DNA of 64,000 bases, from NCBI RefSeq assembly GCF_024502345.1, contig NZ_JALDNN010000001.1; one strand, 5' to 3'. Position numbers and translations under genes: made by a program. Source of the DNA: Escherichia coli (GTDB lineage: Bacteria > Pseudomonadota > Gammaproteobacteria > Enterobacterales > Enterobacteriaceae). Shown piece after piece: positions 2,531 to 8,661 of the stretch. The first letter of the stretch is position 1; each line of letters opens with the position of its first letter. The notes beneath the pieces were generated by a model. It was not told the origin of the DNA, ran no database searches, and saw only the letters and a list, made by a program, of their open reading frames with translations.

Positions 2531-3265
2531 ATGTCCAAACTCGATCTAAACGCCCTGAACGAACTGCCGAAGGTAGATCGCATTCTGGCGCTGGCGGAAA
2601 CTAACGCCCAACTGGAAAAACTGGACGCTGAAGGCCGCGTAGCTTGGGCGCTGGATAATCTGCCCGGTGAATATGTACTTTCTTCCAGCTTTGGCATTCA
2701 GGCGGCGGTGAGCCTGCATCTGGTGAATCAAATTCGCCCGGATATTCCGGTGATCCTCACCGATACCGGTTACTTGTTCCCGGAAACCTACCGCTTTATT
2801 GACGAGTTAACGGACAAACTCAAGCTCAACCTGAAAGTGTACCGTGCTACCGAAAGCGCAGCCTGGCAGGAAGCACGCTACGGAAAACTGTGGGAACAGG
2901 GCGTTGAAGGCATTGAAAAGTACAATGACATCAACAAAGTCGAACCGATGAACCGGGCGCTGAAAGAACTTAACGCGCAAACGTGGTTTGCTGGCCTGCG
3001 CCGTGAACAATCCGGCAGCCGCGCCAATTTACCGGTGCTGGCAATTCAGCGTGGCGTATTTAAAGTGCTGCCGATTATCGACTGGGATAACCGAACGATA
3101 TATCAGTATCTGCAAAAGCATGGCCTGAAATATCACCCATTATGGGACGAAGGATATTTATCGGTGGGCGATACCCATACAACCCGTAAATGGGAACCCG
3201 GCATGGCGGAAGAAGAAACGCGTTTCTTTGGCTTAAAAAGGGAATGTGGGTTACACGAAGGGTAA
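2531..3265 (+). CDS. cysH: Phosphoadenosine phosphosulfate (PAPS) reductase
   Basis: ORF in frame 2378..3265; start set at ATG 2531 ([20 protein letters not shown]...), 244 aa, C-terminal ECGLH motif. Confidence 0.93.
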
Positions 3266-3282
3266 ATATTGTCGGATAAATT

Positions 3283-3320
3283 AAACGCCTCTGTCAGAAA
3301 TGATGGGGGCGTTTTTATTT
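3283..3320 (+). terminator. Rho-independent terminator after cysH
   Basis: GC stem aaacgcc ... ggcgttt followed by T-run (gtttttatttt). Confidence 0.6.
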
Positions 3321-3528
3321 TGCGAGCAGCATTCCTGATTTTAAACGTGAACGCCGCTGGAAGAATTATCAGGTATAGAATGGCGTCGGGTGCTTGAGGC
3401 TGTCTGGCGTTAAGCATTCGCGAGGTTCCAGATGGACAAAAGCCCCAGGCGATATTTCTATCAACCTGAGGCTCGCGTTCGAACGTAGCAATTCGAATGT
3501 TAGTCTCTTCTTTGCAGGGAGGCAAGAC

Positions 3529-3681
3529 ATGCTGACAAAATATGCCCTTGTGGCAATCATAGTGCTGTGTTTTACAGTACTGGGATTCACGCTGATGGTA
3601 GGCGACTCGTTGTGTGAGTTGAGTATCAGAGAACGTGGTATGGAGTTTAAGGCTGTTCTCGCTTACGAATCGAAGAAGTAG
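3529..3681 (+). CDS. Hok/Gef-family type I toxin (small membrane peptide), hokX-like locus
   Basis: 50-aa [53 protein letters not shown] preceded by gggagg RBS; matches Hok signature (hydrophobic N-terminus, SLCE(I/L), AYESxK); longer in-frame ORF 3394..3681 probably not translated as such. Confidence 0.72.
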
Positions 3682-3870
3682 CCACCACGCGGGGGTAAAA
3701 CCCCGCGTATTGAATTGTGATGGTTTGGTCTCCTGCACCCTTTTTTAAATTTATATTTTTTATGTGAATATATTGTCTCTATTTATTATTATGAATTTCA
3801 AATGAAAATCATAAATTTATTCACAATATAAATGTTTTATTGGCTGATATATATCACAGATAATTTTTAA

Positions 3871-6135
<2,265 letters not shown>

Positions 6136-6231
6136 GTTAGACGTTCTTTAAAAATAAGGAAATGTTTTAATTTAGTTGGTAGATTGTTGATGCGGAATAA
6201 ATTTGTTTAAAAACAGTTATGTATGCTTAGT
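6136..6231 (+). promoter_or_regulatory. AT-rich CRISPR leader immediately upstream of first repeat
   Basis: AT-rich tract (…taaaaataaggaaatgttttaatttagttggtagattgttgatgcggaataaatttgtttaaaaacagttatgtatgcttagt) abutting repeat 1; orientation consistent with repeat sense strand. Confidence 0.55.
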
Positions 6232-6443
6232 GTGTTCCCCGCGCCAGCGGGGATAAACCGGGGCCGACGGTCGCAGTATTGGACCATTTCAAGTGTTCCC
6301 CGCGCCAGCGGGGATAAACCGACTCTTACATGCTTAATCAGATTCTGGCGGATGTGTTCCCCGCGCCAGCGGGGATAAACCGGGCGCACTGGATGCGATG
6401 ATGGATATCACTTAGAATTCCCCGCCCCTGCGGTAGAACTCCC
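6232..6443 (+). CRISPR. Short type I-E CRISPR array: 4 repeats (last degenerate), 3 spacers of 32 bp
   Basis: 29-bp repeat GTGTTCCCCGCGCCAGCGGGGATAAACCG at 6232-6260, 6293-6321, 6354-6382; degenerate terminal repeat gaattccccgcccctgcggtagaactccc at 6415-6443; spacers 6261-6292, 6322-6353, 6383-6414. Confidence 0.92.
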
Positions 6444-6463: not shown

Positions 6464-7501
6464 TCAAGACGCCTTCGCCAGCTCCTTCACCAACGGTAGC
6501 ATTATCCGCATAACGTCACGGCAGCGACGTTCTATTCTTCCAGGAAGTGCCTTATCAATATGCTGTTGATTATCCAGTCTTACGTCATGCCAGCTATTTC
6601 CCGCAGGGAATGCGGCTGTTTTTGCGCGTTGCTGATAACCATCCTTATTCCCAAGATTCCAGTTAGTCGCTTCCACCGAAAGTACAGCAATGCCCGCTTT
6701 GTCGAATATTTCTGCGTCATTACAACACCCAGTGCCTTTCGGATAATTTTTATTCAGACTCGGATTGGTCGTTGCGGCTATTCCGTGACTGCGCGCAATT
6801 GCCAGCGCCCTGTCGCGCGTTAATTTCCTTACTGATTCAGGGGTTTTTACACCGCTGTTGAAATACAATTTATCGCCAACAATTAAGTTATCGAGATTAA
6901 TCACCAGCAGCGTATTTTTCTTTTCGGTGTCACTCATCCGCTTGAGTAAATTCTCAGCGCCTAATTTCCCTTCCTCTTCGCCGCTGGTCGCCACAAATCG
7001 AATACCATACTCGGTAGGCGTATTTTTCAGGCGTTCTGCCAGTTCCAGCATGACACCTAAACCTGCGGCGTTATCATCCATTCCTTGTAACGTCAGCCCG
7101 CCGAGATTGGCATCGGCGTCAGCATCGCTCAGCGGGGCGTAAGTATCCAGATGCGCCATAATGATGATCTGCTGCGGCGCTTTGCCTTCATGAGCGGCAA
7201 TCACCGTACTTCCCGTCACGTTATGCCAGCTCTTACGATTATCGCGGGCGGTATAAATATACCGACTATTAAATGTCCGAATATCACTGCGATAACCCAT
7301 TTGCTGAAACTGTTGGCGAATATAATCGGCAGATAACATTTCTGCAGGAGTTCCGGTCATGCGTCCCGGAAAGAAAGTAGCAATATGTCGTGCCTGAGTA
7401 TTAGCAAAATCGCCAGGTTTAGGTGACGAGGCGTGTACGGGGAGAATAAAGCATACGCCGAGCGCCAGGGCAGCGGTACGGTGGCGCAATGCGGAAAACA
7501 T
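6464..7501 (-). CDS. iap: Alkaline phosphatase isozyme conversion aminopeptidase
   Basis: 345-aa ORF with signal peptide (MFSALRHRTAALALGVCFILPVHA), M28-type peptidase motifs; conserved position next to CRISPR array. Confidence 0.88.
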   Translation of the reverse strand: MFSALRHRTAALALGVCFILPVHASSPKPGDFANTQARHIATFFPGRMTGTPAEMLSADYIRQQFQQMGYRSDIRTFNSRYIYTARDNRKSWHNVTGSTVIAAHEGKAPQQIIIMAHLDTYAPLSDADADANLGGLTLQGMDDNAAGLGVMLELAERLKNTPTEYGIRFVATSGEEEGKLGAENLLKRMSDTEKKNTLLVINLDNLIVGDKLYFNSGVKTPESVRKLTRDRALAIARSHGIAATTNPSLNKNYPKGTGCCNDAEIFDKAGIAVLSVEATNWNLGNKDGYQQRAKTAAFPAGNSWHDVRLDNQQHIDKALPGRIERRCRDVMRIMLPLVKELAKAS

Positions 7502-7752: not shown

Positions 7753-8661
7753 ATGGATCAAAAACGACTTACTCACCTGCGGCAACTGGAGGCGGAAAGC
7801 ATCCACATTATTCGCGAGGTGGCGGCAGAATTCTCAAATCCGGTGATGCTCTACTCTATCGGTAAAGATTCCAGCGTCATGCTGCATCTGGCGCGCAAGG
7901 CGTTTTATCCAGGTACGCTGCCTTTCCCGTTGCTGCATGTTGATACCGGCTGGAAATTCCGCGAGATGTATGAGTTCCGCGATCGTACGGCTAAAGCCTA
8001 CGGCTGCGAGTTGCTGGTGCATAAAAACCCGGAAGGCGTGGCGATGGGGATTAATCCATTCGTGCACGGCAGCGCGAAACATACCGATATTATGAAGACC
8101 GAAGGCCTGAAGCAGGCGCTGAATAAATACGGTTTTGATGCCGCCTTCGGTGGTGCGCGCCGCGACGAAGAGAAATCCCGTGCTAAAGAGCGTATCTACT
8201 CTTTCCGTGATCGCTTCCATCGCTGGGACCCGAAAAATCAGCGCCCGGAGCTGTGGCACAACTATAACGGGCAGATTAACAAAGGCGAAAGCATCCGCGT
8301 TTTCCCGCTCTCTAACTGGACCGAGCAGGATATCTGGCAATACATCTGGCTGGAAAATATCGACATTGTGCCGCTGTATCTCGCTGCGGAACGTCCGGTT
8401 CTGGAACGCGACGGTATGTTGATGATGATTGATGACAACCGTATCGACCTGCAACCGGGCGAAGTGATCAAAAAACGGATGGTGCGTTTCCGTACGCTGG
8501 GCTGCTGGCCGCTGACCGGTGCGGTGGAGTCAAATGCACAAACACTGCCGGAAATCATTGAAGAGATGCTGGTTTCCACCACCAGTGAACGTCAGGGCCG
8601 CGTGATTGACCGCGACCAGGCGGGATCCATGGAGCTGAAAAAACGTCAGGGGTATTTTTAA
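7753..8661 (+). CDS. cysD: Sulfate adenylyltransferase subunit 2
   Basis: 302-aa [30 protein letters not shown]..., PAPS-reductase-like fold; precedes cysN. Confidence 0.95.

Follow-up and report, generated by a model that had tools for sequence, protein, structure and literature searches.

The hok/sok-type locus beside cysH, hokX/sokX, has been both published and annotated before in Escherichia coli. Its hokX gene lies within the cysH-iap region, where it is intact in the AIEC strain NRG857c and IS inactivated in E. coli B (PMC7232551). The genes hok and sokX have been found beside cysH in 90% of 237 urological (UPEC) strains (PMC12736100), and low-level transcription of the hokX region has been reported in EHEC (PMC5331693). 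A "hok sok system" is described in every strain but those carrying the K-12-type cas-E variant, and beside cas-E variant E1 (PMC3903273). Studies of how the E. coli CRISPR-Cas locus evolved have used the cysH-linked hok locus as a landmark. K-12 MG1655 has an annotated ncRNA gene, sokX (b4701), in the homologous spacer, opposite in strand to cysH. RefSeq names the cysH-adjacent coding sequence "Hok/Gef family protein" (WP_000956458.1), and the UniProt name in the same cluster is "Putative protein HokG" (HOKG_ECO57).

Here, we analyze the copy in a 64-kb stretch of E. coli DNA, referred to below as the window. Sequence comparison gives us high confidence that positions 3376 to 3746 hold an uninterrupted copy of this chromosomal type I toxin-antitoxin module. 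A preliminary description had proposed a hok/sok-like locus between cysH and cas3, and since hokX/sokX at cysH was already known, this was a correct but ordinary find. It carries little weight as a discovery and is more useful as a positive control, in which a real type I module was recognized from raw sequence. Three points may nevertheless serve annotators of hok loci: the strand on which the Rfam model runs, the missing canonical mok start in Escherichia hokX, and a 3' hairpin in which insertions recur. Only the apparent lineage-wide absence of the canonical mok start in hokX and hokE is mildly new.

Identity and distribution of the cysH-linked hokX locus

The locus lies between cysH, which ends at 3265, and a cas3-derived open reading frame (ORF) that begins at 3874. 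Across the entire window, a single Rfam family matches at gathering thresholds, namely RF01794 ("sok"). The covariance-model match spans the leader at 3388 to 3544 on the plus strand and covers model positions 1 to 157 of 157, with 106.7 bits against a gathering score of 59 (E = 3e-23). The Rfam "sok" model runs on the hok-mRNA strand, so that Sok itself lies opposite the matched strand. The annotated sokC, sokB, sokE, and sokX genes of K-12 are all antisense to the Rfam match.

The toxin gene hokX occupies 3529 to 3681 on the plus strand and encodes 50 amino acids, including Cys14, Cys29, and Tyr46. Its Shine-Dalgarno (SD) sequence, GGGAGG (3517 to 3522, plus strand), ends 6 nt before ATG 3529 and overlaps the -35 box of the Sok promoter on the other strand; the intact ORF with this ribosome-binding site was read correctly in the preliminary description. 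The peptide matches the full-length Pfam profile PF01848 (HOK_GEF) with 43.1 bits against a cutoff of 22, and the E value of 3e-11 puts the assignment to Hok far beyond chance. Whereas Pfam is clearly satisfied, the NCBIfam Hok subfamily model NF007279 is not reached (41 against a cutoff of 73), and the HokA equivalog NF007290 scores 57.7 bits, below its curated cutoff of 89, indicating that the peptide is not HokA. That the ORF and hairpins merely resemble hok/sok by chance in an intergenic spacer is extremely improbable: the small size of the ORF is the one feature in favor of this explanation, and it is already refuted by the Pfam and Rfam E values, the synteny across genera, and the curated annotation.

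The exact window peptide occurs in at least 1,000 public contigs, beside cysH in all matches listed. It is identical to WP_000956458.1 at 49 of 50 positions and retains both Cys14 and Cys29; the sole difference is C15F. Residue 15 is C, F, L, I, G, A, or S among orthologues and is also F in HokA, and we therefore do not regard C15F as inactivating. The alignment that the preliminary description had named as a way to expose inactivating substitutions thus yields one difference from the reference, at a variable position. Overexpression toxicity has effectively been assayed for the sister C15 allele, since a preprint (10.1101/2025.08.07.668861) lists it in its supplement among the toxicity constructs (46_982; 49/50 identical). 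The preprint tested 45 sequences, and its main text names only three as nontoxic, none of which is 46_982.

We searched the region against 5,426 complete E. coli genomes with megablast and found at least some part of the locus beside cysH in essentially all of them. The 3' half (3600 to 3747) is present in 4,220 genomes (78%) and contiguous in 3,416. In about 800 genomes, the similarity breaks at window position 3703 or 3696, inside a GC-rich hairpin that is unbroken in the window, and in one compared locus, it ends within this hairpin and is followed by a DDE-transposase gene. The hairpin thus appears to be a recurrent site of IS-type insertion, which explains many of the "truncated" hokX copies. 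The similarity of K-12 to the window ends right after the hok ATG, indicating that K-12 lacks the toxin ORF, which it has lost, but keeps the leader together with sokX. None of the 6,190 megablast match places in complete E. coli genomes is a plasmid copy.

A DNA-pattern scan of species-representative genomes recovered syntenic, cysH-linked hokX in E. albertii, E. whittamii, cryptic Escherichia clades, Pseudocitrobacter, Kluyvera, Atlantibacter, and Pluralibacter, along with hokE-type and hokB-type paralogues. The order of cysH, hokX, and cas3 or iap is found in E. coli records, public contigs, other Escherichia species, Pseudocitrobacter, Kluyvera, and Atlantibacter. As for the neighboring CRISPR-Cas region, a search for a CRISPR array with Tandem Repeats Finder returned none, and a separate repeat search found three repeats. 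A search of complete E. coli genomes for the cas3::cas2 junction yielded similarly arranged matches of only about 90% identity.

The hok mRNA, SokX, and their predicted pairings

A generic promoter and terminator scan did not call the promoter of either hok or sok, and we assigned both by homology and conservation. The putative -10 box of the hok promoter, TAGAAT (3376 to 3381, plus strand), lies 6 nt upstream of the GGGTGC at the presumed 5' end. A TAGAAT, TAAGAT, TAGGAT, or TATGAT box is found at an equal distance upstream in hokX, hokE, and hokB-type loci. The promoter is probably weak, with no good -35 box. The full-length hok mRNA would span about 359 nt (3388 to 3746, plus strand), with its 5' end at the start of the RF01794 match. 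We place its 3' end at 3746 on the basis of the T6 run at 3741 to 3746 (plus strand) and the homology boundary found there, where similarity to cas-less E. coli ends (query position 478 of 601). Neither the generic scan nor local folding predicted a local terminator hairpin at 3741.

The minimum free energy (MFE) structure of 3388 to 3746 (-131.7 kcal/mol, z = -4.5) pairs the 5' and 3' ends. The 5'-terminal tac element, GGGTGCTTGAGGCT (3388 to 3401, plus strand), can pair at 12 of its 14 positions with the fold-back inhibitory (fbi) element, GGTCTCCTGCACCC (3727 to 3740, plus strand), and the two are paired in the MFE structure. The tac element is predicted to pair either with fbi, in an inactive full-length form, or within a 5' stem at 3388 to 3446. 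The fbi element is conserved in orthologues, and hokB-type loci carry a compensatory change, in which position 4 of the 5' end changes from U to C and the 3' element changes from A to G to match. The preliminary description had assigned the fold-back role to a hairpin at about 3687 to 3709. This hairpin is real (3687 to 3708, plus strand; 8 bp, -17.7 kcal/mol, z = -4.5) and follows the stop codon, but the fold-back element is the more distal 3727 to 3740. The hairpin is the GC-rich insertion site described above, is present in all X-, E-, and B-type loci as a conserved element of the hok 3' UTR, and, by analogy with R1, is likely the 3'-processing stop of the hok mRNA. IS186 copies are annotated immediately downstream of both hokE and hokC in K-12.

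Folded in isolation, 3388 to 3448 forms the Rfam 5' stem (-23.7 kcal/mol). RNAalifold analysis of 20 leaders recovered both this stem and a hairpin at 3468 to 3507, with 10 pairs showing compensatory changes. The latter hairpin (plus strand; -18.8 kcal/mol, z = -4.4) includes compensatory pairs and holds the predicted target of the Sok 5' tail. In hokB and hokC, its counterpart is the hairpin at which mok translation initiates; here, there is no ATG in the 5' arm. The global MFE structure of a 3'-truncated mRNA (3388 to 3710) shows another 5' hairpin and does not reproduce the Rfam 5' stem, so we do not use this fold as evidence of refolding. The alternative hairpin might be the equivalent of the metastable 5' hairpin of R1.

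On the opposite strand, alignment with K-12 sokX (b4701) maps a SokX antisense RNA of about 58 nt, running from 3489 to 3432 on the minus strand. Its predicted fold (-23.7 kcal/mol, z = -4.05) comprises a single-stranded 5' tail, a hairpin, and a U-tract. The putative Sok promoter (3497 to 3525, minus strand) consists of a -35 box TTGCCT (complement of 3520 to 3525), a 17-nt spacer, and a -10 box TAACAT (complement of 3497 to 3502), and the start site at 3489 is 7 nt downstream of this -10 box. Both hexamers, with this spacing, are conserved across the X-, E-, and B-type loci of 30 contigs. The promoter agrees with the consensus at 8 of 12 positions, which explains why the generic scan, with a threshold of 9 of 12, missed it. 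The sequence thus points to a cis-encoded antisense Sok gene with its own promoter, overlapping the leader. A Sok-like RNA had been expected on the minus strand over about 3440 to 3530; the strand is borne out by the sokX homologue, but the interval is not one block, as the RNA runs from 3489 to 3432 and the promoter extends to 3525.

The DNA of the locus is 98.1 to 98.3% identical to its E. coli counterparts over 360 nt, and 98.3% is the highest identity over the locus in any complete E. coli genome. The window allele carries a 1-nt deletion and substitutions at 3473 to 3487, in the hairpin that holds the target of the Sok 5' tail, and the region of that tail (3473 to 3488) is the most polymorphic part of the locus. 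This variation bears on the idea that the SokX small RNA is itself the relevant product, directed at the mRNA of the paralogue hokE, for example, or at unrelated mRNAs, with hokX being dispensable. SokX is a catalogued small RNA, and K-12-type genomes keep the leader with sokX and delete hokX, as this idea would predict. However, a highly polymorphic 5' tail is unexpected for a trans-acting seed, the retention of sokX in K-12 is simply explained by the position of the deletion boundary, and SokX overexpression had no phenotype in a screen of biofilm, motility, and fimbriae (PMC4606813). We consider a trans-acting role of this kind very unlikely.

The mok start, Tyr46, and the activity of hokX

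The canonical mok start is an ATG located 7 to 8 nt after a GAGG (GAGG-N7-8-ATG). It is found in hokB, in hokC, and in the hokX orthologues of Kluyvera (two loci), Klebsiella michiganensis, and Pluralibacter. In these hokX orthologues, the mok ATG is in frame with hok or opens a frame whose stop overlaps the hok ATG, and in hokC and hokB, the annotated mok ATG is overlapped by the 5' end of Sok. The corresponding GAGG of the window is at 3468 to 3471, with no start codon 7 to 8 nt after it. The canonical ATG is absent from every Escherichia and Pseudocitrobacter hokX copy examined, which read TTCG or TCCG at this spot (TTCG in the window), and likewise from the hokE copies examined. Because the missing ATG is common to all Escherichia hokX and hokE copies examined, it does not exclude the locus from the family.

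Other candidate starts lie upstream of hok. The preliminary description took a longer in-frame ORF from 3394 as mok, and the frame is indeed open from TTG 3394 for 95 codons; no other start codon upstream of hok is in frame. We rejected this TTG as a mok start, as it lies 6 nt from the presumed 5' end at 3388 and has no SD sequence. A 34-codon ORF from ATG 3432, preceded by GAGG at 3423 to 3426, was also rejected. It is cut by a TAG in the window and by a TAA in the commonest E. coli alleles, and ATG 3432 is absent outside Escherichia and Pseudocitrobacter. This leaves a 12-codon upstream ORF (3497 to 3535, plus strand) as the sole candidate through which translation could be coupled in a mok-like manner. 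It has no SD sequence, and its UGA overlaps the AUG of hok (AUGCUGA). The conservation of ATG 3497 is no proof of translation, since this triplet belongs to the complement of the Sok -10 box.

A further potential control point is RNA editing. TadA is reported to convert A to I in hok mRNAs, changing Tyr to Cys at codon 29 of hokB and at codon 46 of hokC, hokD, and hokE (PMC5630033, PMC12214031). A TadA-edited Hok is recognized by a Tyr codon, TAC within TACG, that specifies residue 29 or 46 and lies in a loop, with Cys hard-coded at the partner position (PMC5630033). The Tyr46 codon of hokX is TAC followed by G (TACG, 3664 to 3667, plus strand), lies in a predicted 9-nt loop, CUUACGAAU, whose local fold is weak (z = -1.6), and has as its partner a Cys29 hard-coded by TGT. 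TAC+G occupies codon 46 in all 27 X- and E-type loci and codon 29 in all 7 hokB-type loci. At the sequence level, the window gene thus has the features of a TadA-edited Hok, and editing of A3665 would produce Cys46.

These observations are consistent with a reading that we advance only tentatively. The cysH-linked hokX of Escherichia may have lost an ancestral mok start and kept all other regulatory elements. In that case, the hok/sok design would have a mok-less form, represented by hokX and similarly by hokE, in which translation of Hok is coupled to the SD-less 12-codon ORF or starts directly at the hok SD sequence, and TadA editing of Tyr46 is an added gate.

The main rival concerns the activity of the locus rather than its identity. 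It holds that hokX/sokX is intact in sequence but a silent relic, in which Hok is essentially never translated following the loss of the mok start, and which persists through linkage, Sok function, or neutral drift. The contrast between the mok ATG of hokB, hokC, and the Kluyvera, K. michiganensis, and Pluralibacter orthologues and the TTCG or TCCG of all Escherichia copies examined fits this explanation, as does an AUG at 3497 that lacks an SD sequence and whose conservation is accounted for by the Sok -10 box. So does the frequent loss or breakage of the locus in E. coli, through K-12-type deletion of the ORF or the 3'-hairpin interruptions in about 800 genomes. In addition, chromosomal hok loci (hokA, hokB, and hokC) are reported to be unable to mediate postsegregational killing, according to Pedersen and Gerdes (1999) as cited in the preprint 10.1101/2025.08.07.668861. 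On the other hand, the ORF, SD sequence, tac, fbi, GC hairpin, and TAC-G codon are kept across genera, and the peptide changes are mostly at tolerated positions, a pattern that favors purifying selection acting on a translated toxin. The canonical ATG is missing from hokE-type loci as well, yet HokE is among the published toxic controls (10.1101/2025.08.07.668861), and the strong GGGAGG could permit direct initiation once the mRNA has refolded. We view a silent relic as a serious possibility, although one that falls short of probable.

Proposed mechanism and comparison with known systems

By homology with R1 hok/sok, hokB, and hokC, the observed elements and the predicted, conserved pairings can be assembled into a mechanism. 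Those systems are the source of its inferred parts, which are the ends of the transcripts, their processing, the action of Sok, editing, and toxicity in the native setting. The weak promoter would produce a stable mRNA of about 359 nt, in which tac (3388 to 3401) is locked on fbi (3727 to 3740), so that the full-length RNA would be closed to both translation and Sok binding. Slow 3' trimming to the GC hairpin (3687 to 3708) would free the 5' end and allow the leader to refold. The unstable SokX would then pair with the leader, blocking translation and leading to decay. Upon depletion of Sok, the 50-aa Hok would be made and inserted into the inner membrane, collapsing the membrane potential and causing killing or growth arrest. 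Full toxicity would probably require TadA A-to-I editing of Tyr46 to Cys46, with Cys29 as the partner, as for hokC, hokD, and hokE. With no canonical mok start, hok translation may proceed via the SD-less ORF at 3497 to 3535, may initiate directly at the hok SD sequence, or may be very inefficient.

The window locus is closest to the hokX/sokX reference of E. coli, with which it shares the position beside cysH, the leader, the Sok promoter, the hairpin, fbi, and about 98% DNA identity over 360 nt. It differs in carrying the F15 allele and, unlike K-12, it keeps the toxin ORF. The closest paralogue is hokE/sokE of K-12 (b4415/b4835), with 78% peptide identity, the TAC-G codon at Tyr46, the same Sok promoter layout, and likewise no ATG at the canonical mok position. 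However, hokE occupies another chromosomal site, on the ybdK side, and the K-12 gene is followed by an IS186 copy. It also has 4 extra nt before the hok ATG, which places the +55 AUG in frame and yields a 62-aa extended form.

The hokB/sokB and hokC/sokC loci of K-12 share the same Rfam leader (109.7 and 118.3 bits, respectively), with Sok likewise antisense to it. In contrast to the TTCG of the window, both carry an annotated mok with GAGG-N7-8-ATG, and the editable Tyr of hokB is at codon 29 rather than codon 46. Plasmid R1 hok/sok belongs to the same family (PF01848 and RF01794) and would share the same logic of tac/fbi pairing, 3' processing, and a single-stranded Sok 5' tail. Nevertheless, the window peptide is only 40% identical to R1 Hok, compared with 78% to HokE, and its characterization in the preliminary description as "closely paralleling" R1 Hok was overstated. 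The window locus further differs from R1 hok/sok in being chromosomal rather than plasmid borne and in having no canonical mok start, and as a chromosomal locus, it is not expected to mediate postsegregational killing.

Transcription and strand assignment of hokX/sokX

The hokX/sokX locus (3376-3746) lies between cysH, which ends at 3265, and a cas3-derived ORF. A strong intrinsic-terminator-like hairpin of 14 pairs with a T-run occupies 3283-3314 on the plus strand, directly after cysH. This predicted terminator points to transcription of hokX separate from that of cysH. Rfam RF01794 matches the window at 3388-3544, as well as comparison loci L004-L007, and these matches run antisense to the annotated Sok genes. 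The family is named "sok antitoxin," and its 157-nt model was built on the strand of the hok mRNA leader. Reading the strand of an RF01794 match as the Sok strand would produce a wrong strand call.

Variation in the Sok 5' tail and leader

The most variable stretch within the hokX/sokX locus is 3473-3488, which encodes the 5' tail of Sok together with the target of that tail. The window's allele here, CTCGCGTTCGAACGT-AGC, carries a 1-nt deletion and was found in no complete E. coli genome, where the top identity is 98.3% over 360 nt. Among comparison loci L025, L035, and L040, the same allele is present in Escherichia sp. MOD1-EC7003 and a Pseudocitrobacter metagenome-assembled genome (MAG), and that of Pseudocitrobacter vendiensis differs from it by one substitution. 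This pattern could stem from recombination or from diversifying Sok specificity. Separately, a 3.3-kb contig of a MAG labeled Bacillota (L031) contains a stretch that matches the hokX leader (window 3346-3531) at 97% identity. This stretch looks like the K-12-type truncated form and is probably E. coli DNA introduced through contamination or mis-binning.

Insertions at the post-stop hairpin

Insertions seem to recur in the GGGG-N-CCCC hairpin directly 3' of the hok stop codon (3687-3708 in hokX), where hokX is interrupted in approximately 800 E. coli genomes. In one interrupted example (L012), similarity ends within the hairpin around 4175, and the next gene encodes a DDE transposase. In K-12, IS186 copies are annotated just downstream of both hokE and hokC, and IS186 is likely the inserting element at this hairpin. 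Several Escherichia genomes additionally carry hokE-type or hokB-type loci in tandem pairs approximately 500 bp apart (L021, L029, L034, and L039), an arrangement consistent with the hok "islets" described in a preprint (10.1101/2025.08.07.668861).

The remnant CRISPR-Cas locus

Directly after hokX, a single plus-strand ORF (3874-6135) encodes Cas3_HD, a helicase C-terminal domain, and then Cas2 profile positions 19-86. This in-frame cas3::cas2 fusion implies that cse1 through cas1 have been deleted in the window, and its junction was absent above approximately 91% identity from the complete E. coli genomes searched. A residual type I-E CRISPR array is present at 6231-6384, comprising three repeats (GTGTTCCCCGCGCCAGCGGGGATAAACCG) and two spacers with a 61-nt period. 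The array is followed by a candidate iap on the minus strand (6464-7501; 345 amino acids) and a candidate cysD (7753-8661; 302 amino acids), both with the ORF sizes expected for these genes. The array-iap-cysD side of the window shares its gene order with cas-less E. coli.
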